Assembly: GCA_027493625.1 (NCBI GenBank)
Contig: JAOSKM010000003.1
Location: forward strand, 599,028-663,027
Direction: 5' to 3'
DNA: 64,000 nucleotides
From: Planctomycetota bacterium
GTDB lineage: Bacteria; Planctomycetota; UBA8742; UBA2392
The notes under the pieces were generated by a model. The model did not search any database, was not told the origin of the DNA, and saw only the letters and a list, made by a program, of their open reading frames with translations. Positions 44,501-58,880 of the stretch are shown one piece after another. Numbering within the stretch: the stretch's first letter is position 1; each line of letters opens with the position of its first letter. The position numbers and the translations under genes were made by a program.

Positions 44501-45928
44501 GTACCGGCGGAACTGCCCGCCTGCACCGCGTAGTTGAACGTCTCGGTGACGCTGGCGGTGCCGCCCAGCTTGATGACGATGAAGTAGGTCTTGGTCTCAC
44601 TGGCCGCGAAAGTCGCTTCGCCGCCCGAGAACGGGATGGTCGCCTCGGCCGGGCTGCCGGCGAAGGTAGCCGTGCTGATCAGCGCGTCGCCCGCGTCGTA
44701 CGAACCCACGGTGCCGCTGGCGGTCTGGTCGCGGTACACCGCGAACTCGGCATAGTCGTTCAGGTGGTCGCCGGTGCCGCTGCCCCGGATGGTGAGCGAG
44801 TTCAGCGTCACGCTGCTGAAGGCGTTCGCCGTGACCGTGAACCTGCCGGCCTCAAAACCGATGCCGCCGCCGGTCTCATTGTTCTGCACCGGCTCGGCTG
44901 TGCCGACCACCGCGGATACCGTCACGGCCGGACCGTTGATGACCAGTCCTTCCATGGTGCGGCTGGGGACGTTGAAAATGGTGGCGCTGGCGCCGGTGGC
45001 AAGCGCGGCAACCTTGTACTTGAAGGTCTGCGCCGTGATCGCCGTGCCGTTCAGCTGCACCACGATGAAGAAGCGCTTGTCGGCGGCCGGGGCAAAGGTC
45101 TGTTCGCTGACCGGCACACTGATGGTGGCCTGGGGCGGTCCGCCGCTGAAGGTGCCGCTGCCGATCAGCACGTCACCGGCGTCGTAGGATCCGGACGGTG
45201 CCGCTGGCGGTCTGGTCACGATAGAGCTGGAAGCTGGTGTAGGCGGTTCCGTGGTCGCCGGTGCCCAGGCCTTCGATGGTGATGCTGCTGATGTCGTCAC
45301 TGGCGTTGCCGTTATTCAGGATGCGGAAGGTGGCGGCCTGGTAGCCGATGCCGCCGCCGTTTTCGTTGTTAAGCACGGACGCCGCGGTGCCCTTGATGGC
45401 ATCCACGTCCAGGCCCGGGTCAACGCGTTCGGCGACCGTGAAGTTGGCGGCAACACCGCCGTTCAAGGTGCCGGCAAGCGTGGACCACAGCAGCTGGCCC
45501 TGGGGCAGGTTGGCAGTGGACGTCCCGCGCCAGTGCAGCGCGTCGCCGATGCCGCTCGGCGTCCAGTAATCCAGCACGTAGCTGAAGGTGGGGCCGTTGT
45601 GCCCGCCACCCGAGCTGCTCATGCCGGTCCAGGGACCGACGGGCAACTGACCCGACGAGATCTGCCAGGCCGTGAGCGGTGATGAGGTGGCGTGATCACC
45701 GAAGATCAGCCAGCGCCAGGCCTGACCGGGTTGGTAGGTCATGTCGTTGTTGTCGACCACCAGCACGAAGTCGTACTGGTAAGTGCCGGTTCCAAGATCT
45801 TTGACCTGGTACTTGAGGGTCAGAGGGACGGCTGCGAGCGACCCTGCACCGAGCAGTATGGCCGCAAGCAGCACAACCCGCAGTGTGCGGGTGCTGAAAC
45901 AGTGCATCATGATTGTTTGACTCCCCAC
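41570..45928 (-). CDS. giant secreted surface protein (~1450 aa) with repeated choice-of-anchor-D-type domains and a MYXO-CTERM-like tail; two apparent 1-bp frameshifts
   Basis: Signal peptide MMHCFSTRTLRVVLLAAILLGAGSLAA. Repeats ...TFTVSVTPT..G.FSF.I.I.NDDPDENPY.F.V.GT. C-terminal GGGGGGGGGGGCVAGDSSTPLFALLALALVSLVAIRRRRA. The frame breaks at gtccggatcc (~45190) and gggcccccg (~42045). Confidence 0.7.
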
Positions 45929-46175
45929 GTCGTCAATTGAACTTCATTCTTACATCCAGGAGCTCGCCACCAAACGTGGTATCGGACAGCATGGATGCAA
46001 GTGAGCGGTCATTATGTCCGCAATCCTTGCCAGTTCAAGGGTTCGCACGCATGGTCGTTGGCTTTTCCCATCGGAGAAAGAGAAATAAGTCATACACTAG
46101 TCGTGTGCGTGCTGGGCAAGATGCCGGCCAGCAATCGTGGGACTTCATTGGTTAATAGTAGGAAGCAACCGCTCC

Positions 46176-46245
46176 TGGCAGGACGTGAGAGAGTCGAACT
46201 CCCCCGGCCGGCTTTGGAGACCGGCCCGGCCCCGGGCCCCGTCCT
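46176..46245 (-). pseudogene. degenerate tRNA-like element (70 nt, T-arm and acceptor recognisable, no clean anticodon arm)
   Basis: ...GGGAGTTCGACTCTCTCACGTCCTGCCA with the 5' strand AGGACGG. Confidence 0.25.
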
Positions 46246-46246
46246 G

Positions 46247-46271
46247 TGGTTCGCAGGCAAGGATTCGAACC
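46247..46271 (-). repeat. partial 3'-end copy of tRNA-Gln (25/26 nt), att-like
   Basis: tggttcgcaggcaaggattcgaacc versus tggttcgcgggcaaggattcgaacc at 46400. Confidence 0.7.
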
Positions 46272-46399
46272 CCGAAACAGTCCAGCGGACTGTTTCGGAC
46301 CCGCAGCAGGCCGGCCAAAGCTCGCCGGAAGGGCGAGCGACGCCGGCCGTAAGCGGAGGGGTCGCCCTATCAGGCCGGCATTCCCTTCATCTAGAGGCT

Positions 46400-46474
46400 T
46401 GGTTCGCGGGCAAGGATTCGAACCTTGATTTCCTGGTTCAGAGCCAGGCGTCCTACCAGTTGGACGACCCGCGA
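46400..46474 (-). tRNA. tRNA-Gln(CTG)
   Basis: TCGCGGGTCGTCCAACTGGTAGGACGCCTGGCTCTGAACCAGGAAATCAAGGTTCGAATCCTTGCCCGCGAACCA. Confidence 0.8.
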
Positions 46475-46571
46475 GCGGTGTAGGGACACGCTGCCGCGTG
46501 TCCCTACGTTCCCGGTTTTCGCTTTCGAAGGACGGGGACAGTCCCGAACTTCCGAGACAGTCCCCTTCCGA

Positions 46572-47186
46572 TCAGATGCCCGACAGGATTGTCGGGCCCA
46601 CCCGGTCCTTCAGAAACGCCTTCCAGCTCTCCTGCAGCGCTACTCCACCAAGGATCAGCTGGTCGCGCGTCGGCTGGAACGGCTGGCGGCGCAGCGCCAG
46701 GCCGGCCTCAACCGGCGTGCGGTCGGCCTTCTGGTTATTGCAGCGGCCGCAGGCCAGCACGCAGTTCAGCCAGCTGGTGCCGCCGCCGCGCGAGAGCGGC
46801 TGCACGTGGTCGATCGTCATTGCGCGCTTGTGCACGAAAATGCCGCAGTACTGGCACTGGCCGTTGTCGCGCTCGAACACGCCGCGGCGCGAGTAGGGCA
46901 CGCCGGTGTTGGGGTAGCCGGCGAAGCGGGCGAGTGTGATGACCTCCGGCTTGCGCACCTGCAGATGCGCCGTGCGGATGTAGTCGTGCTCGATTACATG
47001 CGCATCGGCCGGCACGGCCTTCTCGCTCAGCCACTGGGCCCAGTCGAACAGCTGGTAAGTCTCCGGGCACACGACGCGCGCGCGGCCGCGGAAAACCAGT
47101 GTCAGGGCCTGCTTGACGACCACGGTGGTGATCGGCTGCCACACGCGGTTGAGTGTCAGCACACGCTCGAGTTCAACACGCGTCAT
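46572..47186 (-). CDS. HNH endonuclease embedded in the tRNA array
   Basis: GQCQYCG...MTIDHVQPLSRGG...NCVLACGRCNNQKADR HNH motif; start MTRVELERVL within ORF 46572..47336. Confidence 0.8.
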   Translation of the reverse strand: MTRVELERVLTLNRVWQPITTVVVKQALTLVFRGRARVVCPETYQLFDWAQWLSEKAVPADAHVIEHDYIRTAHLQVRKPEVITLARFAGYPNTGVPYSRRGVFERDNGQCQYCGIFVHKRAMTIDHVQPLSRGGGTSWLNCVLACGRCNNQKADRTPVEAGLALRRQPFQPTRDQLILGGVALQESWKAFLKDRVGPTILSGI

Positions 47187-47202
47187 ACAGCCTCCTTTCA
47201 GG

Positions 47203-47253
47203 GTCAGGGTCAGGCTCAATTTCGGCCGGCACGGACGAAATTGTGCCTGACCC
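47203..47253. repeat. long hairpin at the HNH gene 5' end; related copy at 48813..48848
   Basis: gggtcaggctcaatttcg gccggcacgga cgaaattgtgcctgaccc. Confidence 0.6.
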
Positions 47254-47267
47254 TTTTGAGCGTTCGT

Positions 47268-47341
47268 TTGGTAGCGGCGGCCGGAATCGAACCGGCTGGG
47301 TTGGGCGTATGAAACCCACCCGCGTCCAACGCGCACCGCAG
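47268..47341 (-). tRNA. tRNA-like, possible tRNA-Met(CAT); poor acceptor and D-arm, may be a pseudo-tRNA
   Basis: Good T-arm/3' acceptor GCCGGTTCGATTCCGGCCGCCGCTACCA and anticodon arm TGGGT-TTCATAC-GCCCA. Confidence 0.3.
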
Positions 47342-47344
47342 TGA

Positions 47345-47424
47345 TGTTTGGGCGATTGGGTGAATGTGACCTTCACCTATCGAAGGGAAAGCGGTGCTTT
47401 CCCTTCGATACAATCGCTTCGCGA
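47345..47424 (-). ncRNA. conserved spacer element with a covarying hairpin, immediately 3' of tRNA-Lys; homolog at 48076..48154
   Basis: accttcacctatcg-[aagggaaagc ggtg gctttccctt]-cgatacaatcgcttcgcgattgg. Confidence 0.4.
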
Positions 47425-47498
47425 TTGGTCCGCCCGGCGGGACTTGAACCCGCATCTGACCGGGTAAGAACCGGCCGCTCTGCATTGAGCTACAGGCG
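47425..47498 (-). tRNA. tRNA-Lys(CTT)
   Basis: TCGCCTGTAGCTCAATGCAGAGCGGCCGGTTCTTACCCGGTCAGATGCGGGTTCAAGTCCCGCCGGGCGGACCA; two G-U pairs in the acceptor stem, short D-loop. Confidence 0.7.
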
Positions 47499-47502
47499 AA
47501 TA

Positions 47503-47576
47503 GTGGAGCCGCTGGTGGGAATCCAACCCACGTCTCACCGTTACGAAGGGTGGGTCCTTGCATTGGACGACAGCGA
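47503..47576 (-). tRNA. tRNA-Thr(CGT), array copy, unlike the host tRNA-Thr at 27952
   Basis: GTCGCTGTCGTCCAATGCAAGGACCCACCCTTCGTAACGGTGAGACGTGGGTTGGATTCCCACCAGCGGCTCCA. Confidence 0.65.
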
Positions 47577-47635
47577 CGTAGGGGCCGCCCTGTGTGGCGG
47601 CCCGGCGAGAGGGCACATGGGCCCGCCCCTGCAGA

Positions 47636-47709
47636 TTGGACCCCAGTGAGTGAATCGAACACTCGTCTCTTCTTTGTAAGAGAAGCGTCTTGCCATTGGA
47701 CGAACCGGG
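47636..47709 (-). tRNA. tRNA-Val(TAC)
   Basis: CCCCGGTTCGTCCAATGGCAAGACGCTTCTCTTACAAAGAAGAGACGAGTGTTCGATTCACTCACTGGGGTCCA. Confidence 0.75.
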
Positions 47710-47710
47710 G

Positions 47711-47781
47711 GTCGCGATGACAGGACTCGAACCTGCGTTCTCCTGCTCCCGAAGCAGGCGTCCTTCCCTGGACCACATCGC
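47711..47781 (-). tRNA. tRNA-Pro(CGG), CCA not encoded, abuts tRNA-Val
   Basis: CGCGATGTGGTCCAGGGAAGGACGCCTGCTTCGGGAGCAGGAGAACGCAGGTTCGAGTCCTGTCATCGCGA. Confidence 0.75.
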
Positions 47782-47788
47782 GTTGTGT

Positions 47789-47863
47789 TTGGTCGGCTCG
47801 GCCGGAATCAAACCGGCGTTTCGGCTTTCGGAGAGCCGCGTCCTGTTCCCTGGACGACGAGCC
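47789..47863 (-). tRNA. tRNA-Arg(CCG)
   Basis: CGGCTCGTCGTCCAGGGAACAGGACGCGGCTCTCCGAAAGCCGAAACGCCGGTTTGATTCCGGCCGAGCCGACCA; perfect stems. Confidence 0.8.
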
Positions 47864-47920
47864 GGAAAGGGGTCTGGCTCCGCGCAGCGGTGCCTGACCC
47901 CTTTCCGGCGGTCGCCGCGA

Positions 47921-47995
47921 ATGGCGAGCGTACGGGGATTCGAACCCCGACCGTCTGGTTGAGAACCAGAAGTCCTTGCCGTTAGACGATACGCC
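47921..47995 (-). tRNA. tRNA-Glu(CTC)
   Basis: GGGCGTATCGTCTAACGGCAAGGACTTCTGGTTCTCAACCAGACGGTCGGGGTTCGAATCCCCGTACGCTCGCCA. Confidence 0.8.
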
Positions 47996-48000
47996 CGAAG

Positions 48001-48075
48001 CTGGCGACCCCACGGGGAGTTGAACCCCGACCTTCCCGGAGACAACGGGAAATCATAGCCGTTAGACCATGGGGC
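48001..48075 (-). tRNA. tRNA-Asp(GTC)
   Basis: GGCCCCATGGTCTAACGGCTATGATTTCCCGTTGTCTCCGGGAAGGTCGGGGTTCAACTCCCCGTGGGGTCGCCA. Confidence 0.7.
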
Positions 48076-48154
48076 CATGCCTTGGATGAGCTGTGGCAAC
48101 CTTCACCTATCGCGGGCAGAGCAGTGCTCTGCCCGCGATACATTCGCTGCGCGA
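48076..48154 (-). ncRNA. conserved spacer element with a covarying hairpin, 3' of tRNA-Ile
   Basis: accttcacctatcg-[cgggcagagc agtg ctctgcccgcg]-atacattcgctgcgcgaatgg; the stem sequence differs from the 47345 copy but pairing is preserved. Confidence 0.4.
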
Positions 48155-48228
48155 ATGGTAGAGACACGCGGAATCGAACCACGATCTGCCGGTTATCAAC
48201 CGGCTGCTCTGCCATTGAGCTATGTCTC
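48155..48228 (-). tRNA. tRNA-Ile(GAT)
   Basis: AGAGACATAGCTCAATGGCAGAGCAGCCGGTTGATAACCGGCAGATCGTGGTTCGATTCCGCGTGTCTCTACCA. Confidence 0.8.
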
Positions 48229-48234
48229 TGCAGG

Positions 48235-48306
48235 GCTGGCTCGGCAGGACTCGAACCTGCATCGCAGACTTCGCACGCCTGTATCCTTCCGGTTAGACGA
48301 CGAGCC
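48235..48306 (-). tRNA. tRNA-like, anticodon possibly GCG (Arg); no encoded CCA, G at position 32
   Basis: TGGCTCGTCGTCTAACCGGAAGGATACAGGCGTGCGAAGTCTGCGATGCAGGTTCGAGTCCTGCCGAGCCA. Confidence 0.35.
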
Positions 48307-48399
48307 ATTGGTTGTTTGCGCCAACGGCCGCTCATGCAGAGCCGCGCCCATGTGCCGGGATCGGATGGCCTGCCATGAGCGGGCCGAAGGCGAGTGAAA

Positions 48400-48473
48400 T
48401 GGTAGACCGGCTGGGATTTCAACCCAGACTGCACGCTTGCAGGGCGTGTGTGCTCGCGTTGACACTACCGGCC
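48400..48473 (-). tRNA. tRNA-like (anticodon arm CACGC-CCTGCAA-GCGTG, TGC?); mismatched acceptor, probable pseudo-tRNA
   Basis: Good T-arm and CCA; the 5' acceptor strand GGCCGGT does not pair with 3' CCGGTCT. Confidence 0.25.
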
Positions 48474-48533
48474 CGTAGCGCAGGCGCCCCGCCTGCACCG
48501 GCCGGGGCGCCTCGCCCCCGGCGGTTGGTTCGT

Positions 48534-48608
48534 TGGAGCCCCCGGGCGGAATCAAACCGACCGTCTTCTGAATGGCAATCAGAGATTCTGTCACTGAACT
48601 ACGGAGGC
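48534..48608 (-). tRNA. tRNA-Gly(GCC)
   Basis: GCCTCCGTAGTTCAGTGACAGAATCTCTGATTGCCATTCAGAAGACGGTCGGTTTGATTCCGCCCGGGGGCTCCA. Confidence 0.7.
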
Positions 48609-48720
48609 AAGCGGCGGCAAAGCCGCCTTGAGAATTGCGCCCCCGCCCAGGCGGGGGCGTGTACTGACTCAGCACCGTTGTCAAAGAACTGGCCTGCCCG
48701 CCATAGCCTTGGCGAAGGCG

Positions 48721-48794
48721 GGTGGAACAGCCTGGACTCGAACCAGGATCTTCCGGTTTTCAGCCGGACGCTCTGCCCGTTGAGCTACCGATCC
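48721..48794 (-). tRNA. tRNA-Phe(GAA), 3' tail ACCC
   Basis: GGATCGGTAGCTCAACGGGCAGAGCGTCCGGCTGAAAACCGGAAGATCCTGGTTCGAGTCCAGGCTGTTCCA. Confidence 0.65.
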
Positions 48795-48812
48795 GTTCTC
48801 CCGCCATCGGGA

Positions 48813-48848
48813 GGGGGTCAGGCACAATTTCGTTCCGAAATTGAGCCA
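48813..48848. repeat. hairpin related to 47203..47253, flanking the 5' side of the tRNA array
   Basis: ggtcaggcacaatttcg ttc cgaaattgagccagacc. Confidence 0.55.
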
Positions 48849-49139
48849 GACCCCAAGCTGGGTGCAGGCGCAGAGTCAAACTGCCCCTCCGCGGTCACAA
48901 CGCGGCGTGCTTTCGCTACACCAACCCGCACATGAATTCCCCAAACGAAAGCGGGGACCCCGCATGGAGTCCCCGCCGCGTAAAACCGGGCATTTCAGCC
49001 CCGCGGTGGACTCCTCAATTCGCGATCATGGCCCGCTTCCGGCCGTGGACCGCGCAGACTCGCCTGGATACCTCGCTTCGACATGACTCTGCTTTCTGGC
49101 TCAACCTGCTTCGTTCGGTACCACACAGATACACCATGC

Positions 49140-49175
49140 ATATTGACACGTCAATACTATTCTTGACGTGTCAAT
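49140..49175. promoter_or_regulatory. AT-rich perfect palindrome with TTGACA-like hexamers; candidate promoter/operator for leftward transcription into the tRNA array
   Basis: ttgacacgtcaa tactattc ttgacgtgtcaa. Confidence 0.45.
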
Positions 49176-49223
49176 ATAAACGCGGTTGCCGGCCGCGCGG
49201 TTTCAAAAAAACTGCCGGCGCTT

Positions 49224-49634
49224 CTACTGGCGGCGCCGGCGACCCGTCAGGAATCCGCCTCCTCCTCCGATCAGCCCGCCCAGGATCAGCCCCAGCACGC
49301 CCTCGAGGTAGCTGTCCTGCGCCCGGGCGCGCTCCAGCTCGCCCTTGGCGGTTTCGAAGGCGTTGCGGGTCTGCTCGAACTTCAGCTCGCGGCTGCGGCG
49401 CTCGTCCTCTGCTGCCTGCAGCGCGGCCAGCGCCGCCTGCACGCGGTCGCCTTCGCCTTCCTTCAGCGCCTCGATGTACGCGCCGCGCGTTTTCTCGGCC
49501 ACTTCCATGGCGTCGCGCAGCTCGGCGCCGGCTTGCTCCATGGCGTCGCGGGTGCGCTCGGCGGTTTCCAGGGCGTACTGCAGGCTGCTGCAGCCCGCCA
49601 GCACAACAAACAACAGGGGGATGACGTACTTCAT
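49224..49634 (-). CDS. lipoprotein with coiled-coil and C-terminal TM segment (unimolecular-spanin-like architecture)
   Basis: MKYVIPLLFVVLAGC lipobox; C-terminal GVLGLILGGLIGGGGGFLTGRRRRQ. Confidence 0.45.
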   Translation of the reverse strand: MKYVIPLLFVVLAGCSSLQYALETAERTRDAMEQAGAELRDAMEVAEKTRGAYIEALKEGEGDRVQAALAALQAAEDERRSRELKFEQTRNAFETAKGELERARAQDSYLEGVLGLILGGLIGGGGGFLTGRRRRQ

Positions 49635-49658
49635 GGGGAACTCCTTTCGGGATGGGTG

Positions 49659-49877
49659 TCAGCGGGTTTCCAGCACGGCCAGGCGCTCGGCGTGTTCGCT
49701 GCTGGCGCGATACAGCTCACGGATGTCGTCGCGCTGCAGCTCGGACTGCTTGGCCAGCGCGTCCACCACGCCGGCCAGCTTCAGCACCGCGTTGTTCAGT
49801 CGCAGGCACACGCCGATCAGCCCGATGCCGATCGCGCCGATCCACGCGCTGGCCACGCTGATGATCACGGCTTCCAT
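49659..49877 (-). CDS. small membrane protein (72 aa), holin-like
   Basis: N-terminal TM MEAVIISVASAWIGAIGIGLIGVCL plus charged C-terminus; ATGA coupling to the upstream ORF. Confidence 0.4.
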   Translation of the reverse strand: MEAVIISVASAWIGAIGIGLIGVCLRLNNAVLKLAGVVDALAKQSELQRDDIRELYRASSEHAERLAVLETR

Positions 49878-50134
49878 TACCGGCCTCCCAGCAGTGCGAT
49901 GTCTTCGGCGCTGGCGCCCAGGGCCAGCAGGCGTTGCTCGGCGGCGAACACCCGGTCGCGCTTCGCCAGCTCGCTCCGCAGGCGCTCGGCCTCCGCGCGC
50001 GCGTCCGTGTTGATGGCGGCGCGGAACTCAACCAGCAGCGAGGGCCAGGCCTGCTCGAAGTCAAACCCCGGCTCGAAGCTGCGCGCCGTCAGTACCAGGT
50101 TCAGGAGTTGGGTTGCCGCTGCCTGCCAGTCCAT
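49877..50134 (-). CDS. hypothetical protein (85 aa)
   Basis: ORF in operon context. Confidence 0.3.
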   Translation of the reverse strand: MDWQAAATQLLNLVLTARSFEPGFDFEQAWPSLLVEFRAAINTDARAEAERLRSELAKRDRVFAAEQRLLALGASAEDIALLGGR

Positions 50135-50143
50135 TGGATTTCC

Positions 50144-53100
50144 TCAGGTTGGAGTGCCGATCACCAGCAGGCGGAACGCGACACCGCTCGCGTTCCAGGC
50201 GCCGTTGGTGCTGTTGATTGTCAGGGTTTGCGCGCTGCCGGCGCCCGGGGCGTTCAGGCTCCAGGTCGCCCAGTGAGAGCCGTCGGCGTCGTACTTCAGG
50301 TTGATCGTGCCCGTGCCGCCCATCGGCCAGCTTGAACTGGGGCCGCTGCCGCTGCCGTCGCGGCACTGGTAAATGAAGTGCGCGCGGTTGATGCCGGTCA
50401 GCGCCACCGTCTTGCCGCTCACGCCGCTGCCGCTGTACTCGACCACGCTGGCGACCAGGTTGGCGCCGGCCGGATGCAGGTCCTCGAACTTCGCGAACTT
50501 CGCCACCCCCGCGTCATCGATCACCAGCAGCTTGTAGCCGTCAGTGACGGCCGAGAGCTGGCCGAGCCCCGCCACCGTGGCCAGCAGGTGCTGCAGTTGC
50601 GACTTGCGCCCGACCAGGCTGGTGCGGACCATGAATTCATCGGTGGGGCTTAGCGTGGAGTCTGAGGTGGCGTTATTGATCAGCTCGTTGATGGCGCCGT
50701 CTGCGCTGCTCGCGGCGGTTCCGCCGTTGGCCAGCGACAGCGGCAGGGCGGGCAGCTCGCTGCTGTAGGCCAGCTTGTTCGCGCCGTGGTAGAGGCGCGA
50801 GTCGCTGCTCTTGATCCAGGCCGTGTTCGCCGCCACGCCGCCCGGATTGGCGCTCTGCGGCGTGAGTTCAAGCCCCGTGGGGTCGATCAGCCCGGCCACG
50901 CCCAGCTTGCCCCCGACTTCCAGGTTGCCGTCCGTACGCAGGGTGTTTGATCCGTCGCGATAAAGCTCGACGTCCTTGCCGAATGCGATGCCCTCGTCGT
51001 CACCGGCCCCCAGCCGCAGCGCCTGGCTGTCGCCGAAGTTCGCATCCGCCGGCCCGACCTGCAGGTGACCCGTAACGTGCACGCCGCGCGACAACCCGGC
51101 CGGCGTTGACGCGTCAACATCTCGCGGCAGCAGTTCAAGATGACCGCCCGATGTGGCAAGGCGCACGTCCCAGCCCGAGTGCACACGGCCGGCGGCGAAG
51201 TGCGGGTGGCCGAACGCCAGCACCACTTCGGGGTGCAGCGCGAGGAACGTCTGGCGCGCCCCCGAATCGAGTTGCGCGGCGGGCATGGCGACGCCCGGCG
51301 GCAGGTAGATGCAGCCGCCGCCGAGGCTGGGGTCGGGTACGCCGTTCGCTTCGCCGGCCCAGCCTTGGCTCTTGATGCTGGGGCCGGGGTAGGGCGTTTC
51401 GCGCTCCTGCCCGCGTTCGCTGGGCGCCGGCACCCAGTCGTGGCTGGGCGCCCACAGCTCGTACTCGCTGACCGCCGGCCGAATGTCGTACGGCACGCAC
51501 AGCATGGTCGGCACGTAGGGCGGCGGCGGGTCCTCGACCGGCGGCGCGGGCGGCGGGCCGATCGGCGGCTTCCAGGTGGGCGGGATCTCGGGCAGGAAAG
51601 GCACCCGGTACTGGATCTTCCAGCGCCCTTCGCGTTGCGTGTGGTTCCAGGGGTGGCGCTCGGCGGCGTCGTACTTGAGCTGCGCCTCATAGGGCGGCCA
51701 GGGCGGGATGCCGCCCGCAAATGGCTCAGCGTAGAACTTCACGGGCGCGTCGTGCACCGCGTCGCCCGGGACCTTGAAGAACGCGTCCGTGCTGATGTGC
51801 CCCGCGCTCTCGCGGTACACGCCGTCCTTCACGGCTGTGCCGTACAGGTGTTTGCTGCACGCGTCGGCGTCGGCCAGTATCGGCCCTCCCTGCAGCGTAG
51901 CCGTGAGGCGGCCGAGCGAGCGCCCGTCGGTTTCCGCGAACAGCCCGCGCCCGAGCACTTCCGGGTTGGCGGTGTCGCCTTCGCGCAGGTTCAGCGCCGG
52001 GGCCCAGCCGCCGTCGCGGGCGCCTTCCTGCCGGTGCGCGGGGCTGAGCGCCAGCACGCTCAGGAACTGCAGCCCGCCGCGCCGGCCCAGGCTTGACCCG
52101 TCAAGGTCATAGACCAGGCTGGAAGATGCACCCGGCTCAGGCCCACGTGCGTCGGCAACCAGCGGCCCGCAATCCACGAAGTGCGGCTCGTCGCCAAGGC
52201 TCACAATCAGGCCGCGCATAGCCTGCGGCAAAACGTGGCGGGCTTCGAACAATTGTTTGGGCGCAATCTCCGCGTGGCGTTCGTCCGGCGCCAGCACGCG
52301 CAGCCGGCCGGAGTCTACGACCTCCACGCCGGCGACGAAGAACCAGCGCCCGAACTTCGCGGCGTCGCTGCTTTCGAGAAAGAACGGAAACGCCAGCGGG
52401 CCCGGGTGGCGCAGCTCCAGCGCGCCTGTGTCGTCGCGGCGGTGCAGCGCTTCCACCGCGAGCACGCTTTCGCCTTCGGGTGCTTCGCCGCTCGCGCGCA
52501 GCACCAGCGGCCCCGCACGGAAAGCGTTGATCGGCTGGTGCAGCCCGCTAGGTGTCGGCGCCGACGAGCGCGAACCCGCCAGGCGCGGAGCGCCAGCGTC
52601 AGGCGCGGCCGGCAGAACATGCGCGCGCTCGCTGATGGTGCTGACCAGCCCATCGGGGCCGGCCTCGATAACCACACGTTCGACCGCACCCTGGGCCAGC
52701 GCTTCGCAGACACCTGCCAGCTTCGCCACGCGCCGTGAATGCACGTGTTGGTGAACGGCGGCAAGTTCGGAGGCCGCCGCGCGCAGGGCGCCGGCGTTCA
52801 CCACCGCGCCGCTTTTGTACAGCGCAACCAGGTGCTGCGCGTGCAGCGTGATCGGCTCACCTTCGCCGCCGGGGAAGTCCGCCGTAAAAGGCGGGCGCGT
52901 CGCAACGTGCGCAACGCGCAGGCTCAGCTTCGCGGCGCCGCTCAGGCGGCGATCCTGCAGCGTGGGATCGTCGGCGCCGCCGCCTGGCTGAAGCAGCGCA
53001 AACGGCGGCCGCGGCAGGTAGACCAGGCCGGCGTCGGCCTCCAGCTCAAAACCCTCAATCGGCTCGGCAACCGTCTCTTCAATACTGCGCTGCGCCGGGT

Positions 53101-54061
53101 GTTTCGGCGCCGTGTTCAGTGGCCGTGCGATGTGTGCCGTGAGCGACGGCGGCTGAAAGGTGCCGTCCTCATTCAATCCGCCCACGGGCAGCCAGGGCAG
53201 CGTCACCCCGCGCGCGCGGAACAGCCGGAACGCGTAGCGCTTCAGCGCCGCCAGGCGCGCAGCACCGTTGGGAGCCGTGGCGGGCAGCAGCGTCTCGAAG
53301 CCGCCGTCGCTGAGGCAGGCCTGGCGCGCGACGTGCTCGCTGACTCCCCACTGCGCAAGCACCTCGGCCAGTGGCTGCAGCGCGCCGCTGTCGTCCGGTA
53401 GCACCGGCTCGAAGTCGGTCAGCTCGGACAGCTCCAGTGCAGGGCCGCCGACCACCGTCACGCTCGAGGGCCGCTGTGCCTGCGAGGCACTGATCTCGAT
53501 CAGCCGTGTTTCATTCAGCGCCGCAGTTGTCTCGGCTGAAGCAACTGCAACCTGGCCCTCGTCATTTACCGTGCAGCTCAGACCCACGCTTGCCAGCAGG
53601 GCCTCGACGGCATGGCCAAGATCGCCGTTGGCGCGCAGGTTGACCGGCGCCGCCGTGCCGCCCGGCAGGCGCGGCGCTTCTGTCGCGTCCAGGCCGGCGG
53701 CCTCGAACAGGCGTTCGATCGCGGCCTGGGCGCTCAGTGGCTCGCCCTCGCGCCAGGCCGTGCCGTCGCCGACGGGCGCGTTGATTTCGCATCGCACCGG
53801 CCGGCGCCAGCTTTCGCGCAGATCGCTGCCGGTCACGCGCACGCGGCCGTCACCCAGCGCTTCGACACGCCGGGCGGTGAACTGGCTGAAGGTGCGCCGT
53901 GTTTCGGCGTCCGCAACGTGCAGCACCACCGGCCCCGTCTGCGCGATGGCGCTGGGCGGCAATACGGCTTCAAAGCTGGAAGCGCTGCCGCCGCGCCGCA
54001 GCTCGATGCGCAGGCCGAGCAGCGATTGCCCGTTGAGTGTGGCTGTGACGTGCTCGTTCAT
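50144..54061 (-). CDS. phage tail fibre / host-specificity-like protein (1305 aa)
   Basis: Large size; ...ELYRDGSNTLRTDGNLEVGGKLGVAGLIDPTGLELTP... fibre-like motifs. Confidence 0.55.
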   Translation of the reverse strand: MNEHVTATLNGQSLLGLRIELRRGGSASSFEAVLPPSAIAQTGPVVLHVADAETRRTFSQFTARRVEALGDGRVRVTGSDLRESWRRPVRCEINAPVGDGTAWREGEPLSAQAAIERLFEAAGLDATEAPRLPGGTAAPVNLRANGDLGHAVEALLASVGLSCTVNDEGQVAVASAETTAALNETRLIEISASQAQRPSSVTVVGGPALELSELTDFEPVLPDDSGALQPLAEVLAQWGVSEHVARQACLSDGGFETLLPATAPNGAARLAALKRYAFRLFRARGVTLPWLPVGGLNEDGTFQPPSLTAHIARPLNTAPKHPAQRSIEETVAEPIEGFELEADAGLVYLPRPPFALLQPGGGADDPTLQDRRLSGAAKLSLRVAHVATRPPFTADFPGGEGEPITLHAQHLVALYKSGAVVNAGALRAAASELAAVHQHVHSRRVAKLAGVCEALAQGAVERVVIEAGPDGLVSTISERAHVLPAAPDAGAPRLAGSRSSAPTPSGLHQPINAFRAGPLVLRASGEAPEGESVLAVEALHRRDDTGALELRHPGPLAFPFFLESSDAAKFGRWFFVAGVEVVDSGRLRVLAPDERHAEIAPKQLFEARHVLPQAMRGLIVSLGDEPHFVDCGPLVADARGPEPGASSSLVYDLDGSSLGRRGGLQFLSVLALSPAHRQEGARDGGWAPALNLREGDTANPEVLGRGLFAETDGRSLGRLTATLQGGPILADADACSKHLYGTAVKDGVYRESAGHISTDAFFKVPGDAVHDAPVKFYAEPFAGGIPPWPPYEAQLKYDAAERHPWNHTQREGRWKIQYRVPFLPEIPPTWKPPIGPPPAPPVEDPPPPYVPTMLCVPYDIRPAVSEYELWAPSHDWVPAPSERGQERETPYPGPSIKSQGWAGEANGVPDPSLGGGCIYLPPGVAMPAAQLDSGARQTFLALHPEVVLAFGHPHFAAGRVHSGWDVRLATSGGHLELLPRDVDASTPAGLSRGVHVTGHLQVGPADANFGDSQALRLGAGDDEGIAFGKDVELYRDGSNTLRTDGNLEVGGKLGVAGLIDPTGLELTPQSANPGGVAANTAWIKSSDSRLYHGANKLAYSSELPALPLSLANGGTAASSADGAINELINNATSDSTLSPTDEFMVRTSLVGRKSQLQHLLATVAGLGQLSAVTDGYKLLVIDDAGVAKFAKFEDLHPAGANLVASVVEYSGSGVSGKTVALTGINRAHFIYQCRDGSGSGPSSSWPMGGTGTINLKYDADGSHWATWSLNAPGAGSAQTLTINSTNGAWNASGVAFRLLVIGTPT

Positions 54062-55195
54062 CTAAACCTCCGGCGCCAGCTCGACCATGGCCGCGCGCCC
54101 GCGCGAAACGTAGCGCCAGCTGGTGACCCAGCGGCGGTCGGCGGGCAGGCCCCCGTGCGGCAGTGAGTACTCGACGTGCCGCTCGATAAGCTCGGCGGCG
54201 TAGCGCGGCGCGGGCGGGCTGACGTGGCGGCCGTCGCCGACCGCGCTGCCCTGCTGAATGATCTCCGTCTGCGGCGCGCCCACCTGCTGGCGATATGCTG
54301 GCAGCGCGGTGTCGAGCAGCGGGTGGTCGATAACGCGCCGCGTGGTGGTGAACGAAAGCGTTTCGGTCAGCGCCAGGCTGCCGGCCTCTTCCAGCAGTTC
54401 CACGAACTCGAAATCAACGCGCCGCGTGAACGGGTTCGCCGCGATGCGCGTCGAGACCAGCCGCTCACCGGCCGGGCGCAACTCCAGCGCGCGGGCCCGG
54501 GCCGAGGCGCCCACGAAGAAGCCGCTCAGGGCCCGCACCGTGCGGCCTTCGGCATCTGTGAACTCGCTGGCGACATAGTGGCCGTCGTCCACGCCGCCGG
54601 GCAGCGGCGTGAACACCTGCTCATCTTCGACTTCGTACTCGAGCGCGGGTACCACCGTGTCGCGCGTGACCACCGTGCGCACGCGCCGCCAACCGGCGCC
54701 CAGCACGGGCTGCAGCAGCGCCTCGAAGTCGGCGGGGTTCTCGTTGCGGCGCAAGATTGCCAGCCCCTTGGTGACCAGCCTGGCGGGCTGGCCGGCGGCC
54801 GTCGCCTCGCGCACCGTGTACTGGTGCGACTGCACGGCGCTCGCGGACTCCTGCAACGTGGCGCGGAATTCCAGCGTCACCCCGCGCCGGTTGTGGGCCT
54901 GGCCGGGCACGCGCTCGCGCTCCGTGACCGCGTGCAGCGTGGGGCCGAGCCGGCAGTCCGCGACAGTCAGCACGCGCACGTCCGTGCCGTCGGCCTGCAG
55001 CTTCAGGTCGCCGCCGCTTCCCTGCGCGTCGCGCAGGCTCTGCAAGGCGGATTCCAGGGCGGCGGGCGTGGCTGCTTCGACTTCCAGCTCGATCAGCCAG
55101 CGCTCGGTCACCTCTGGTGACTTGCCCGTGCGGCAGACGTCCAGGCTGGTAGCGGCGCCGAGTGCGGCGCCGTTAAAATGCAGTGCGAGTGTCAT
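54062..55195 (-). CDS. phage virion-associated protein, hypothetical (377 aa)
   Basis: ORF coupled to the tail-fibre gene. Confidence 0.45.
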   Translation of the reverse strand: MTLALHFNGAALGAATSLDVCRTGKSPEVTERWLIELEVEAATPAALESALQSLRDAQGSGGDLKLQADGTDVRVLTVADCRLGPTLHAVTERERVPGQAHNRRGVTLEFRATLQESASAVQSHQYTVREATAAGQPARLVTKGLAILRRNENPADFEALLQPVLGAGWRRVRTVVTRDTVVPALEYEVEDEQVFTPLPGGVDDGHYVASEFTDAEGRTVRALSGFFVGASARARALELRPAGERLVSTRIAANPFTRRVDFEFVELLEEAGSLALTETLSFTTTRRVIDHPLLDTALPAYRQQVGAPQTEIIQQGSAVGDGRHVSPPAPRYAAELIERHVEYSLPHGGLPADRRWVTSWRYVSRGRAAMVELAPEV

Positions 55196-55197
55196 GG

Positions 55198-56508
55198 CTA
55201 CTCCGCCAGGGTGTCCGAGATGGTGGGCGTGCCGGACGACGGCAGGGCGATCTCCAGGCGCTCGCGCGCGAACACCTGGAACGCGCCGGCCTCGTCACTG
55301 GTGCTGTCCAGCGTGAAGCGGTCGGCGACAGGCGCAGTCTGCGGGGCCGCGGCGCCTTGAAAGATCGCCAGCCGCAGGCCCGCATGGGGCACTTCGGTCG
55401 CGGGCGCCAGCGACACGCCGTCCAGGTACACCGCGCCGTTGAAGGTCGCGCCGCAGCGGATGCGCACCTTCACCTTGTTGGGGAAGCTGCCGCGCGGCAG
55501 GTATTGCAGGCCGCCGAGGTGCAGCCACTGGCCCGTGGGTGTTGACCCGTCAATGGTGAGCGTCAGCGCCGAGGCCGCACCGTCGATCAGCAGGTCCAGC
55601 TTCACGTCGCCGCCGGAGTAGCTGCCGACGTACACCCAGGCGCCCAGGGCCCAGAAACGGCCGGATTCCAGGGGCGGGTCGCGATCGGCCAGGTCCTGCT
55701 GCAACTCGCCGGACGTGGCGCCGTTGCCGGTGATCTTCAGTGATCCGCCGCCGAAGAGCTTGGTGGCGGTATCGCGGCTGAACGCGCTGCCGCCGCTGAT
55801 CACGCTCCAGTGGTCCAGCACGCCCGCGGTATCGTCCTCGAAGGCGCCGTCCGTCACCACGTTGCGCGCGTCCGTGATCGCCCCGTAGGTCACCGGGATC
55901 GCGCGGGTGCTGACCGGCGGGCCGACTTCCGGCCGAATGCGGAACTCTTCCTGCCCCACGGGCACGCGGTGGCGCGGGTTGTCGCGCACGCACTCGATGC
56001 AGATGCGCTGGTTCACGATGCGCTCGTCATCGACCAGGTTCTCAGCGGCGTCCACGGTCTGCTTGCTGACGTAGCAGGCCGCGTCGCCGGCGTTGGCGAC
56101 GTCCGCGCTGACTGCACCCAGGCTGACCGCGTTGGCGGCCACGCTCTCGGCGTCGGCCAGCATGGCGCGTTGCAGCTCACGCAGCAGCTCGGCGCGAGAA
56201 GCGCCCTCGGAATTCAGCTCGGCGGCCAGGGCATCGCGGATCCAGGCGTCGAGGGACTGCTGCAGCTGCGCGCCCCAGCCGCGGGCCACGCGGGCGGCGT
56301 CGGCCAGCACGCCCACCGCGTCAAGGCGGTCGCGCTCGGCGGGTGCGTCATTGAGCACATCCACGAACTCTTCGCGCAGCTTGTCCAGGCTGCGGAAAAC
56401 CTCGCCGCCGCTGCTGAAGCTCAGGTTGCGCTCGGCCAGGTTGTCGAGCTGCGTGAAGGCGCGGGCGTACTGGCCCAGCACCTGGAAGATCGTCGTGTAG
56501 TTCGGCAT
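55198..56508 (-). CDS. phage virion-associated protein, hypothetical (436 aa)
   Basis: ORF in a co-directional cluster. Confidence 0.45.
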   Translation of the reverse strand: MPNYTTIFQVLGQYARAFTQLDNLAERNLSFSSGGEVFRSLDKLREEFVDVLNDAPAERDRLDAVGVLADAARVARGWGAQLQQSLDAWIRDALAAELNSEGASRAELLRELQRAMLADAESVAANAVSLGAVSADVANAGDAACYVSKQTVDAAENLVDDERIVNQRICIECVRDNPRHRVPVGQEEFRIRPEVGPPVSTRAIPVTYGAITDARNVVTDGAFEDDTAGVLDHWSVISGGSAFSRDTATKLFGGGSLKITGNGATSGELQQDLADRDPPLESGRFWALGAWVYVGSYSGGDVKLDLLIDGAASALTLTIDGSTPTGQWLHLGGLQYLPRGSFPNKVKVRIRCGATFNGAVYLDGVSLAPATEVPHAGLRLAIFQGAAAPQTAPVADRFTLDSTSDEAGAFQVFARERLEIALPSSGTPTISDTLAE

Positions 56509-56514
56509 GGGAAC

Positions 56515-57177
56515 CTAGCTGCGCAGGATCTGCGCGGTGAAGGGTTGGACCACCTGCCCGGCCACTGACACGCGTACGCGCGGCAGGCTCATCCGCGCCT
56601 CGCAGCGCCAGCGCGCGGCCAGGTACGCCGAGGGGTCGTCGGCGCGGCTGCTGAGGTGGTCATAGAGGAAGAAAAGGGCGTAGCGCGCTGTGACGTCGGC
56701 CAGCGGCTGCAGGCTGTCGGCGCGCCAGCCCTGCGGGAAGCGGGCGTTCAACAGGGCGTCCAGCACGCGCTTGGCGCGGGCCAGCGGGTCGGCGAAGCCG
56801 GGGCGGTTCGCAAACTGGCCGTTCGCAAGAAACGCGCTGATGCCCTTGTGCAGTGCGGCGAGGTCGTCGTCATCGGCGTAGAAGGCGTCGATCACGGCCT
56901 CGAAGGGCGTCGCGTCCGTGATGCGCACGCTGCCGCTGAGGCCGCTGGCGTTCTGGGCCGCGAGGCTGACGTCGCCGGTGTCGGCATCGAGCGTGCCTTG
57001 GGCCACCATGGTTGAGCGCGCGGCGTCGCTGAACAGGCTGACGGTGAAGTTGCCGCCGGCCTCCGTGATGCGCGTGTACAGGCGCCCGTGGTCGGTGTTG
57101 GCGCGGCTGGCGCCGTCGAGCACCCAGCGCGAGAACACGCCGTGCGGGTCGTCATGTGTGGTTACGTATTCGAGCAT
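56515..57177 (-). CDS. phage virion-associated protein, hypothetical (220 aa)
   Basis: ORF in a co-directional cluster. Confidence 0.45.
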   Translation of the reverse strand: MLEYVTTHDDPHGVFSRWVLDGASRANTDHGRLYTRITEAGGNFTVSLFSDAARSTMVAQGTLDADTGDVSLAAQNASGLSGSVRITDATPFEAVIDAFYADDDDLAALHKGISAFLANGQFANRPGFADPLARAKRVLDALLNARFPQGWRADSLQPLADVTARYALFFLYDHLSSRADDPSAYLAARWRCEARMSLPRVRVSVAGQVVQPFTAQILRS

Positions 57178-57245
57178 GGTTCACTTTGGGGAAGGCGCCG
57201 GGGCGGACAGGCCTGCCCGCCCCGGCCGGGGACATCCTGCGCGGC

Positions 57246-58382: not shown

Positions 58383-58463
58383 GGGGTTTGCTCCTTATGG
58401 GGTGGATGGGATGTTCGGGGTGCGTGAGGGTCCGACTTCGCCAAGGCTTCGTCGGACAGGAAA

Positions 58464-58880
58464 TCAGCGCCTGCGGCGTCTGATCTCCTGCACTTGACGT
58501 GTCAAGCTTCCGTGCCGGAGCTGCGTTGGGGCCGGCGCGGGCTCGGACAGCTTCTGGTTGGCGGGCGAAACCGGGGACCGGGCAAACAGGTAAGGGCGGG
58601 AGGACCGCAGGGAGCTGAACACGTCCTCGAGTGCCTGTGCGGTGTCCCCGGCCTCGCGCAGCCGGTTGACGACGTCCTCGAGCTTGAGGGCGTCGCCCGG
58701 GTAGAGCAGGCCTTCGCGCGGCGCGCGGTCGTAGAAGGCGCGCTCGACGCGGGCCTGCTCCAGGGTCGCGGCGTGCTCGTGCTCGAGGCGCGCGACCTGC
58801 TCAATGGCGGTGGTGATCTCGTCCGTCGGCTCCGGCAGCAAAGCGCGGAGCTGGTCGGTGATGGATGGGGGTTTGTTCAT
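58464..58880 (-). CDS. scaffold / head-decoration-like protein
   Basis: Start MNKPPSITDQ with RBS aaggacacaatcATG; acidic, helical. Confidence 0.4.
   Translation of the reverse strand: MNKPPSITDQLRALLPEPTDEITTAIEQVARLEHEHAATLEQARVERAFYDRAPREGLLYPGDALKLEDVVNRLREAGDTAQALEDVFSSLRSSRPYLFARSPVSPANQKLSEPAPAPTQLRHGSLTRQVQEIRRRRR

Follow-up and report, generated by a model that had tools for sequence, protein, structure and literature searches.

Two spacers of a long tRNA array in the window (the whole stretch of 64,000 nucleotides of Planctomycetota DNA that was analysed) hold a real, uncatalogued and dispensable structured repeat. It is taken as such because relatives carry copies behind other tRNAs, because its stems change yet still pair, and because close relatives are without it. 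The element is optional, with a history of gain, loss and copying from one tRNA 3' end to another, and it is one of several families of small palindromic modules that fill the array spacers. The explanation that we prefer, with a confidence that stops a little short of even, is a lineage-specific double-hairpin cassette, anchored at the tRNA CCA, whose candidate role is that of a 3' trailer co-transcribed with the tRNA and removed in maturation.

As the preliminary description held, the element lies 3' of both tRNA-Lys and tRNA-Ile. These genes are on the minus strand, and the two copies, which read from right to left, are their 3' trailers, within spacers at 47343-47425 (between tRNA-Lys and tRNA-Met) and 48077-48155 (between tRNA-Ile and tRNA-Asp; Table 1). 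The extent first given, about 80 nt, has to be trimmed: a repeated element is there, but the conserved part is 61-64 nt (47369-47429 against 48099-48159, 80% identity), and the other ~20 nt of each spacer, on the side of the next tRNA, cannot be aligned between the copies. The right flank that was reported to end at the CCA is indeed conserved, but is itself a 7-bp hairpin (P1), whose outer two pairs involve the C and A of the CCA; in copy 1 these belong to tRNA-Lys. P1 abuts the second hairpin (P2) with zero bases between them, and 22 bp are available if both stack. P2 has 15 bp rather than the 10-11 bp first described, with an invariant base (UAUCG/CGAUA), a copy-specific middle and an AGC/GCU top that is the same in both window copies. 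The unpaired tail that follows is identical, or has 1-2 substitutions, in the remaining simple copies. Copy 1 has in addition a downstream repeat, a second version of the P1 arm next to the CCA, which could pair in its stead with the P1 3' arm. The core of copy 1, as delimited, takes in the discriminator and CCA of tRNA-Lys. Neither the conserved flanks nor covariance model R1 picks out anything in the 64-kb window other than these two copies. Two additional features were considered and rejected. A small ORF behind the tail's Shine-Dalgarno-like AGGUGA would find no suitably spaced start codon in the two copies, and a tRNA comes next; a third short hairpin, GGUG-AAGGU-CRCC, would have only 3-4 pairs and is not present in all copies.

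Table 1. Coordinates of the two copies of the element, their parts and the host array within the window
Feature	Position	Strand	Description	Basis
Copy 1, core (64 nt)	47366..47429	-	3' of tRNA-Lys(CUU)	Covariance model R1, 90.0 bits; repeat family D6
Copy 1, P1	47411..47427	-	CAAUCGC-GAA-GCGAUUG, 7 bp	Fold and pair counts
Copy 1, P2	47378..47410	-	UAUCG-AAGGGAA-AGC / ACC / GCU-UUCCCUU-CGAUA; 15 bp, 3-nt loop	Inverted repeat I11, 100% complementary
Copy 1, tail	47369..47377	-	GGUGAAGGU; unpaired, the same in the two window copies	
Copy 1, downstream direct repeat	47352..47359	-	CCAAUCGC	Read from sequence
Copy 2, core (64 nt)	48096..48159	-	3' of tRNA-Ile(GAU)	Model R1, 90.2 bits; D6
Copy 2, P1	48141..48157	-	CAUUCGC-GCA-GCGAAUG	Fold
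Copy 2, P2	48108..48140	-	UAUCG-CGGGCAG-AGC / ACU / GCU-CUGCCCG-CGAUA	Inverted repeat I7; fold
Copy 2, tail	48099..48107	-	GGUGAAGGU	Repeat comparison
Long tRNA array	46177..48931	-	16 tRNA genes	15 by ARAGORN; 47507-47577 by Rfam only
tRNA-Lys(CUU)	47426..47499	-	Encoded CCA opens copy 1	ARAGORN; Rfam tRNA, 57.4 bits
tRNA-Ile(GAU)	48156..48229	-	Encoded CCA opens copy 2	ARAGORN; Rfam tRNA, 69.3 bits
HNH endonuclease gene	46572..47186	-	204 aa	Pfam HNH, 6e-16; homologues; exact-protein look-up

A lack of further copies, which the preliminary description would have counted against itself, was not borne out. Fourteen were found in related arrays, bringing the total to 16, and every one lies within a homologous tRNA array of uncultured Planctomycetota, at 1-3 copies per genome. 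All 16 have the same orientation and start at the CCA that ends the tRNA, or at what decay has left of that CCA, behind tRNAs of seven kinds (Ile, Lys, Pro, Val, Met, Ala and Arg-GCG). Twelve are simple copies that open at the tRNA CCA (UCA in one), two are composites that start at CCA and continue with a duplicated P1 and then an inserted hairpin, and one is a degraded copy behind a truncated tRNA-Ala (locus L060). The searches of genomes and phages proposed at the outset were productive on the first side alone. A scan of the genomes of 185,579 species returned true copies only inside two homologous arrays, with none elsewhere in those two carrier genomes, and a JGI metagenome scan added one copy, again in an array. 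In IMG/VR, four pattern scans turned up no true copy; one of them gave seven chance matches, in coding sequence and without the hairpin. The element is also absent from Rfam 15, since a cmscan run over 45500-49500, with E values up to 1, gave only tRNAs and chance matches, none of them over 47343-47425 or 48077-48155.

The pairing of the stems is maintained far better than chance would allow. The two window copies differ at 12 positions, which resolve into five compensatory pairs and two loop positions, with no difference in the tail; four of the compensated pairs are in P2 and the fifth is in P1 (A-U to U-A). When 12 random substitutions were simulated, all 22 pairs survived in 63 of 1,000,000 trials. 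The stem had been called wholly different yet paired; the pairing is complete, but the stretches quoted differ at 4 of 10 positions, all four compensated. Over all 16 copies, pairing holds in 96.8% of pair cells, 54 cells carry changes on both sides, and 10 of the 22 pairs show double changes. These values were reached in 0 of 500 shuffles, and controls in which the pairing was slid gave 30-43% paired. P1 covaries with the base after the CCA (A-U, U-A or G-C), and in one strain variant (L082) the P2 pair 48134/48114 of copy 2 has switched from G-C to C-G, between strains that are 98.2% identical over the stretch compared. A test for the strand under selection, by G-U against A-C among the non-Watson-Crick P2 cells as read on the transcribed strand, was set aside (7 against 3, not significant).

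Bases outside the variable pairs are conserved as well. All intact copies keep the UG junction, which only the degraded L060 copy behind tRNA-Ala has lost; the P2 base is invariant in most copies; and the GGUGAAGG tail has taken no more than a few substitutions, while no alignment can be made over the remainder of each spacer. This conservation of unpaired bases spans genomes in which the four-fold degenerate sites of the HNH gene are only 66-81% identical. The earlier step from covariation to selection on RNA can be followed only part of the way. Structure is clearly maintained, but covariation is no proof of selection on RNA because template switching from arm to arm in a perfect DNA palindrome gives the same result.

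P2 is very stable and GC-containing (folding energy of the whole trailer -39 to -43 kcal/mol; z-scores of the two trailers -8.4 and -5.4), and its 15 perfectly paired bp would serve as the hairpin of a Rho-independent terminator. However, there is no U run 3' of either hairpin, P2 being followed by GGUGAAGGU, and a terminator scan is silent at both copies; functional-looking tRNA genes go on downstream in the same orientation, and no promoter-like site is called at the copies. The terminator role first suggested is accordingly rejected, and it is barely credible that the element tunes how far transcription runs on through the array, as an intrinsic terminator or an attenuator.

How optional the element is can be seen at L012, which is near-identical to the window across this locus (its HNH is 96% identical) but is empty at both sites, the spacers there being 'TC' and 'ACTTT'. 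Neither a simple slippage deletion nor a clean insertion reproduces these exact junctions, and both were dropped as accounts of the empty sites. In array L064 nearly all junctions have spacers of just 0-6 nt, and the more distant arrays L069-L072 have no copy.

Such presence and absence at two sites between near-identical genomes favours the main rival to the trailer reading, a selfish or mutational DNA palindrome with no host function, which we consider unlikely but deserving of real weight. It could have spread by transposition-like insertion, by microhomology template switching at ...CCA ends or by co-conversion during the repair of HNH breaks. It would be tolerated because tRNA processing discards the spacers, and its stems would stay paired because the arms correct each other in replication and because propagation needs the hairpin. 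Near-identical variable stems are indeed found behind different tRNAs in different genomes: CAGUCAA between Pro and Val in L056 against CGGUCAA between Ile and Asp in L063, and GAAGAAA between Pro and Val in L045 against GAAGAAG between Val and Met in L049. CAWTCGC direct repeats of 7-8 nt flank five copies (window copy 1, three in L045 and that in L063); elsewhere they are absent, as in window copy 2, or degraded, with a one-mismatch version in L056. Two copies contain a second hairpin nested in P1, each flanked by an 11-nt direct repeat whose sequence agrees with the local loop variant; L065 has a variant without P2; and some copies are decaying, that after Met in L049 with two mismatches and that in L060 truncated along with its tRNA-Ala. 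Other hairpin families share these spacers, one of them in both orientations, and this, together with the nested insertions and their direct repeats, looks like mobility at the DNA level rather than designed RNA signals. The G-C to C-G switch between strains is the one-step outcome expected of arm-to-arm copying, and the GCGAAGC of P1, known as an exceptionally stable DNA mini-hairpin, also counts for a palindrome that acts as DNA.

Other properties sit poorly with a selfish palindrome. Its 1-3 copies per genome are all in one tRNA array, no other copy having come up in the rest of the window or of the two carrier genomes that the genome scan picked out, and its orientation and position at the CCA are fixed in 16 of 16. 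Its unpaired bases are nearly unchanged across diverged genomes in which the adjacent spacer is unalignable, it lacks terminal inverted repeats, there is no transposase or RAYT-type gene in the window, and most copies are without direct repeats.

If the element is instead a 3'-trailer cassette, it would be transcribed as the trailer of the upstream tRNA wherever it is present. In the polycistronic precursor, the terminal C and A of the CCA would be paired by P1, and P2 would stack directly on P1 to form a helix of ~22 bp. Such a compact and stable fold may spare the neighbouring tRNAs from misfolding interference and may stop 3'-to-5' exonucleases until an endonuclease has cut, which could be an RNase III-type double-strand-specific nuclease that attacks the stacked P1 and P2, or one that cuts single-stranded RNA at the GGUGAAGGU tail. 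The product would be a discrete hairpin RNA of ~60-80 nt, with RNase P releasing the downstream tRNA, and the copy-specific middle 7 bp of P2 would avert cross-pairing between copies in one transcript.

Comparable to such a signal are the RNase III sites of rRNA and tRNA operons and the RNase III hairpins of phage T7, long stable spacer helices in which shape is conserved over sequence. These operon processing stems are constant features, usually of at least 20 bp and often with internal loops, whereas the element, known here from its sequence, is optional and has 15 bp plus an abutting 7 bp. For bacterial RNase III, whose sites comprise about two turns of double-stranded RNA, the 15 bp of P2 alone make a short substrate, which weighs against an RNase III step. 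The dispensability of the element and the presence of decaying copies weigh against a trailer function more generally. In E. coli, as reported in PMC2190699, RNase P alone is able to separate closely spaced tRNAs, so a long structured trailer would be an addition that needs its own removal route.

The conserved tail and hairpin loops could also belong to a stand-alone small RNA of ~60-80 nt (for example one that binds a protein through its GGUGAAGGU tail) or to a bistable trailer switch, readings that we regard as quite improbable. In the bistable version, the 3' arm of P1 would toggle between the CCA-proximal arm, with the CCA sequestered, and the downstream CAWUCGC, with the CCA free and a three-way junction closed by a 7-bp stem, thereby gating 3'-end maturation. 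The predicted ensemble is split 0.67/0.33 for window copy 1 and 0.52/0.48 for L063, the downstream pairing is predicted to dominate in L045 A, L045 B and L056, and the downstream repeat of window copy 1 shares the A variant of its P1. The tRNA cluster of phage T4, moreover, encodes stable small RNAs of unknown function. On the other hand, the downstream repeat is intact in only 5 of the 16 copies, with the exceptions noted above for L056 and window copy 2, the alternative stem has only one independent covariation event behind it, nothing in the element was found that would pair with the tail, and the element is dispensable. A tRNA-like fold (a 7-bp closing stem, a long arm, a T-like arm and CCA) fits window copy 1 only, and was demoted to a minor rival because elsewhere neither the CCA nor the abutting arm is present; ARAGORN and Rfam RF00005 recognise the tRNAs on either side and give the element no score.

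It is improbable that mobility and switching are joined in a tRNA-3'-end-specific mobile module that installs itself exactly behind the CCA and then acts as a bistable trailer, gating CCA exposure and tRNA maturation in a stress-induced array. The 3' arm of the module (..GCGAWUG) would pair with the CA of the target and the base that follows, and installation might proceed by nick-primed snap-back synthesis tied to the array HNH or by template switching at the CCA microhomology.

A protein site at the DNA level is very improbable. HUH-type enzyme substrates (REP/RAYT, the ends of IS200/IS605, transfer or replication origins) consist of a hairpin and an adjacent conserved single strand. The element has a similar architecture, with a stem of constant base, free middle and largely constant top, and then a conserved 9-nt flank; an integron attC-like site may be imagined along the same lines. 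But no HUH, RAYT or integrase gene is found in the window or beside any related array, the copies are confined to tRNA trailers, and there are no attC R or L boxes, no GTTRRRY box and no bulged or extrahelical bases. There is a likeness to REP/BIME sequences, in that these too are short, co-transcribed intergenic palindromes whose stems covary between families, which serve as exonuclease barriers in RNA and are mobilised as DNA. REP/BIMEs, however, number tens to hundreds across a genome, lie either way round and come with a RAYT gene, while the element has 1-3 copies per genome, confined to one tRNA array in a single orientation from the CCA, its two copies in the 64-kb window and those from the genome collection all lying in arrays. 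It is also headless: REPs carry a GTAG or CGTC head, according to PMC3733652, and neither is present in the element, the flanks of intact copies being ..AUG|UAUCG and CGAUA|GGUG.

Miniature mobile elements offer a further comparison. MITEs, mitochondrial GC clusters and the double-hairpin elements of Allomyces are small non-coding modules of 1-2 hairpins in the spacers of tRNA and other genes, and the element resembles MITEs and mitochondrial double hairpins in its presence polymorphism, its nesting and its intergenic location. It is unlike MITEs in that it has no terminal inverted repeats (the core ends, UUCGC.. and ..GGUGAAGGU, are not inverted copies), and in its fixed site at tRNA 3' ends and its conserved unpaired bases; direct repeats that might be target-site duplications flank a minority of copies. 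The PeSLs of T4-type phages are mobile promoter/stem-loop cassettes, with an early promoter, that are shuffled as modules between protein genes; the element is likewise a short recurring hairpin cassette, but has no promoter-like motif and is tied to tRNA 3' ends.

The array spacers of one bacterial clade are thus not inert, but hold several families of strongly structured modules, of which one is locked to the tRNA CCA end and combines textbook covariation with the lack of an Rfam match. If this module acts in RNA, it would add a processing or insulation signal to those known for polycistronic tRNA precursors, and natural alleles with and without it are at hand, the element-free ones in GCA_013328895.1. 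If it is selfish, it would be a miniature element of unusual target specificity, and would show cleanly how evolution that looks compensatory can arise in DNA palindromes.

The structure that hosts the element is a horizontally mobile L-array of one clade of uncultured Planctomycetota. L-arrays are reported to be linked to HNH and rtcB genes and to be induced under translational stress, and Planctomycetes are among the phyla said to have them (PMC8421152). Two roles have been proposed for long accessory tRNA arrays: a reserve of tRNAs for times of translational stress (PMC8421152) and a putative anti-defence system (PMC12803027). The host array agrees with the type in being long, dense (16 tRNA genes on one strand in 2.75 kb) and accompanied by dispersed tRNA genes (two in the window), with an HNH gene inside and rtcB in relatives. 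The text of PMC8421152 contains no occurrence of hairpin, stem-loop, palindrome or spacer, and the cassette is therefore presented as a new feature of L-arrays, distinct from the array itself. A phage origin of the region was not borne out: when 44-52 kb was compared by megablast with 50,697 phage records, no match came up.

Homologous arrays were found at loci L012, L045, L049, L056, L057, L060, L063-L066 and L069-L072, and several SRA runs contain an array of the window type. The HNH gene is the sole protein gene within the array and is kept wherever a homologous array extends over that part of the locus. The nuclease domain of its product belongs to the generic Cas9/IscB/McrA type, and for the N-terminal half there is no match. 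The gene was dropped as a clue to the element, and no specific link between the two is drawn because arrays that lack the element have an HNH gene too. RtcB and RtcA lie beside the array in eight related loci, and in the window a phage-like block takes the place that they hold in these relatives.

The spacers that follow tRNA-Lys and tRNA-Ile each carry a copy of one repeated hairpin element, as the preliminary description had noticed. ARAGORN places 17 tRNA genes in the window, 15 of them in a single minus-strand array (46177-48931), to which Rfam adds a sixteenth (47507-47577); the element therefore has minus-strand sense. The repeat finder aligned 61 nt of the two copies at 80% identity, with perfect inverted repeats of 15-16 nt at both. 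In RNA sense the shared unit is CCA-W-UCGC-GNA-GCGA-W'-UG, then UAUCG-N7-AGC-loop3-GCU-N7'-CGAUA, then the unpaired tail GGUGAAGGU. The first part forms a 7-bp hairpin, P1, to the first two pairs of which the encoded CCA contributes C and A, and the second a 15-bp hairpin, P2, which begins at the base immediately after P1. The copies differ at 12 positions, ten of which make up five compensatory pairs and two of which are loop bases; when 12 random substitutions were simulated, all 22 pairs stayed intact in 63 of 10^6 trials. Both trailers fold far better than shuffled sequences (z = -8.4 and -5.4). The stems, first described as ‘entirely different but fully paired’, are indeed paired, but the ten-base stretches quoted differ at only 4 of 10 positions, and the ‘conserved right flank’ is present at the tRNA CCA but is itself a hairpin (P1), which had been missed.

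A search for further copies had been proposed, and it yielded 14 more in related arrays. Pattern scans of a species-genome collection, JGI metagenomes and IMG/VR gave true copies in homologous arrays only: two of 27 matches in the species-genome collection (the Planctomycetota MAGs HKST-UBA88, locus L045, and HKST-UBA84, locus L049), the one match in the JGI metagenomes (L056) and none in IMG/VR. Seven copies served to build a covariance model, which gave 16 distinct copies when run on all fetched arrays; no Rfam family matches the element.

Location of hairpin elements in the window and of element copies in related arrays (coordinates of copies 1 and 2 are those of the aligned 61 nt)
Feature or locus	Window coordinates	Strand	Context	tRNA source
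Copy 1	47369-47429	-	spacer between tRNA-Lys(CUU) 47426-47499 and tRNA-Met 47273-47342	ARAGORN
Copy 2	48099-48159	-	spacer between tRNA-Ile(GAU) 48156-48229 and tRNA-Asp 48002-48076	ARAGORN
GGGTCWGGCWC family	47206-47254, 47861-47909, 48808-48853	both orientations	array spacers	
Window			copies after Ile, Lys	
L082 (strain variant of the window)			copies after Ile, Lys	
L045			copies after Ile, Pro, Met	
L049			copies after Ala, Val, Met	
L056			copy after Pro	
L063			copy after Ile	
L060			copies after Arg-GCG and, degraded, after a truncated tRNA-Ala	
L066			copies after Val, Ala	

All 16 copies share one orientation; simple copies begin at the CCA, and two composite copies begin there with a duplicated P1. 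Standard pairs occupy 96.8% of the pair cells, both-sided changes occur in 10 of the 22 pairs (54 cells), and in 500 shuffles neither the pairing, nor the number of doubly changed cells, nor the covariation score came up to the observed value. With the partners slid by 1-3 columns, pairing falls to 30-43%. Whichever base follows the CCA (A, U or G), the 3' arm of P1 carries the base complementary to it. Very little variation is seen in the UG junction, the base of P2 and the tail, whereas what remains of each spacer is unalignable; the HNH genes of the carrier genomes are just 66-81% identical at four-fold degenerate sites, yet these constant parts hold. It is established that these structured repeats form a genuine family, tied to the 3' ends of tRNAs within a single type of array, and that their hairpins are maintained.

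Because the element lies within an array of tRNA genes on its own strand, where neither promoter nor terminator signals are seen, it is inferred to be transcribed as a 3' trailer of the tRNA, and maturation would then have to remove it. A role at the RNA level, that of a compact trailer cassette, is possible and is tentatively favoured because orientation is fixed and anchored at the CCA, unpaired bases are conserved, the element is restricted to the array and sense-strand G-U mismatches exceed A-C mismatches (a non-significant excess). P1 would tie down the CCA end and could stack on P2 to give a helix of about 22 bp, which may insulate the folds of neighbouring tRNAs, block exonucleases and offer endonucleases a defined site. 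With its unique middle, P2 may avoid cross-pairing between copies in the same transcript. Minor alternatives are that the element acts as a stand-alone small RNA or bistable switch, as an attenuator, or as the hairpin substrate of a HUH-type enzyme. The earlier suggestion of a terminator module is ruled out by the lack of a U-tract and of terminator signals at the element, and identity as a tRNA-like gene failed its defining test.

The element is also dispensable and has been copied between sites, as a comparison of arrays establishes. The related locus L012 (GCA_013328895.1), near-identical to the window in this region, has the same array and an HNH 96% identical, yet neither copy: its Ile>Asp spacer is ‘TC’ and its Lys>Met spacer ‘ACTTT’. 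Spacers are 0-6 nt at almost all array junctions of L064, and the more distant arrays L069-L072 hold no copy. The Ile>Asp junction carries the element in the window, L045 and L063; two other hairpin families take its place, in L056/L066 and L065 respectively, and in L012, L049 and L064 nothing fills the junction. Variable stems one pair apart occur behind different tRNAs (CAGUCAA at Pro>Val of L056 and CGGUCAA at Ile>Asp of L063; GAAGAAA at Pro>Val of L045 and GAAGAAG at Val>Met of L049). A 7-8 nt direct repeat (CAWUCGC), duplicating the CCA-proximal arm of P1, flanks five copies. Strain variant L082, 98.2% identical to the window over the compared stretch, differs in copy 2 by one P2 pair (G-C to C-G) and in copy 1 by a single uncompensated change.

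Within P1 of two copies an extra hairpin (CCCCGGCAAC..GUUGCCGGG) is nested, flanked in each case by an 11-nt direct repeat that carries the local P1 loop variant (GCGAAGCGAAT or GCGCAGCGAAT); these look like independent insertions with target duplication. The nested 32-nt palindrome (CCCCGGCAAC..GC-NNN-GC..GTTGCCGGG) lies behind different tRNAs on the minus strand of L045 (2177-2252) and L049 (4030-4103), and a shorter relative sits inside another hairpin in L057 (4211-4229). The spacer after tRNA-Arg(GCG) in L065 (4057-4107) lacks P2 but has P1, a tail-like stretch and a CATTCG repeat downstream; P2 may therefore have joined an older and simpler trailer as a module in its own right.

The main rival is a DNA palindrome, selfish or arising by mutation, whose perfection is kept up by template switching from arm to arm. 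In its favour are the presence/absence pattern, the direct repeats and nesting, the decay of some copies and the change of G-C to C-G in one step. It is considered somewhat less probable than the RNA-level role; against it stand the very low number of copies, their confinement to the array and the conservation of single-stranded bases. The two need not exclude each other, since spread at the DNA level is compatible with shaping by limits that the precursor RNA imposes.

A second hairpin family (arms GGGTCWGGCWC; GGGUCWGGCWC in RNA) occupies three array spacers, with stems of roughly 20 bp containing two conserved A-A or U-U mismatches. Elsewhere in the window there is only an isolated half-site without a hairpin (2138-2148); the family recurs in L012, L056, L057 and L060.

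The closest known kinds to the trailer element are REP/BIME palindromes, MITEs and mitochondrial double-hairpin elements, and RNase III processing stems. Unlike REPs, it lacks the GTAG/CGTC head and is not dispersed; unlike MITEs, it has no terminal inverted repeats and its duplications are inconsistent. What sets this small, structured intergenic repeat apart is that it is locked to the CCA end and occurs only in an accessory tRNA array. Its distribution is narrow and the RNA role is a proposal; the covariation is clean, and natural alleles with and without the element are available for testing.

The window is bacterial chromosome, encoding a response-regulator kinase, a histidine kinase, glycosyltransferases, an alcohol dehydrogenase and ArgRS. 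The sole protein gene within the tRNA array encodes an HNH endonuclease (46572-47186), whose homologues are in every case from uncultured Planctomycetota, in loci that keep the order RtcB, RtcA (RNA cyclase), tRNA array, HNH, tRNA-Gln, and a giant DUF1573 protein or alcohol dehydrogenase. The array matches the ‘L-array’ type of Santamaria-Gomez et al. (PMC8421152): long tRNA operons that have spread horizontally and are commonly linked to rtcB and an HNH gene, are induced in Anabaena under translational stress and are listed for phyla that include Planctomycetes. The words hairpin, stem-loop, palindrome and spacer are absent from that paper.

Upstream of the array, between it and ArgRS, the window and L012 have a block (window ~49200-60240) that encodes a major capsid protein of SU10 type (57246-58382) together with large proteins without a family match; no portal or terminase was recognised in it. 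Among the loci compared at this position (L057, L060, L063-L066, L070-L072), RtcB and RtcA (RNA ligase and cyclase) occupy it in eight. Just upstream of the first tRNA are perfect inverted 15-mers (ATATTGACACGTCAA / TTGACGTGTCAATAT, 49140-49177), kept in L012 except for the final base of the second (T in the window, C in L012). The pair could serve as an operator that overlaps the promoter of the array, reminiscent of the repressor-controlled promoter of the Anabaena array. Hairpins of GGGACWGTCCC repeats lie directly after and overlap the HNH gene 3' end (window 46515-46600; L045 ~1380-1480); they are not in L012, and alter the HNH C-terminus (204 vs 200 aa).

The tRNA gene at 47507-47577 (-), missed by ARAGORN, scores 43.9 bits with the Rfam tRNA model; its L082 counterpart, called as tRNA-Thr(CGU), differs at 11 positions clustered in 47513-47553, which points to a recombination patch or, alternatively, to decay of the gene. 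Divergence between the window and L012 is far above the rest of the array at tRNA-His (48860-48931) with its trailer and at tRNA-Met, whose alleles are each common to more distant genomes (the window with L045, L012 with L049), a pattern that indicates recombination patches inside the array. Between tRNA-Gln and tRNA-Trp, at 46247-46305 (-), a perfect 12-bp hairpin precedes a 25-nt stretch 96% identical to the tRNA-Gln 3' end (46400-46424); this looks like a tRNA remnant with its body replaced by the hairpin.
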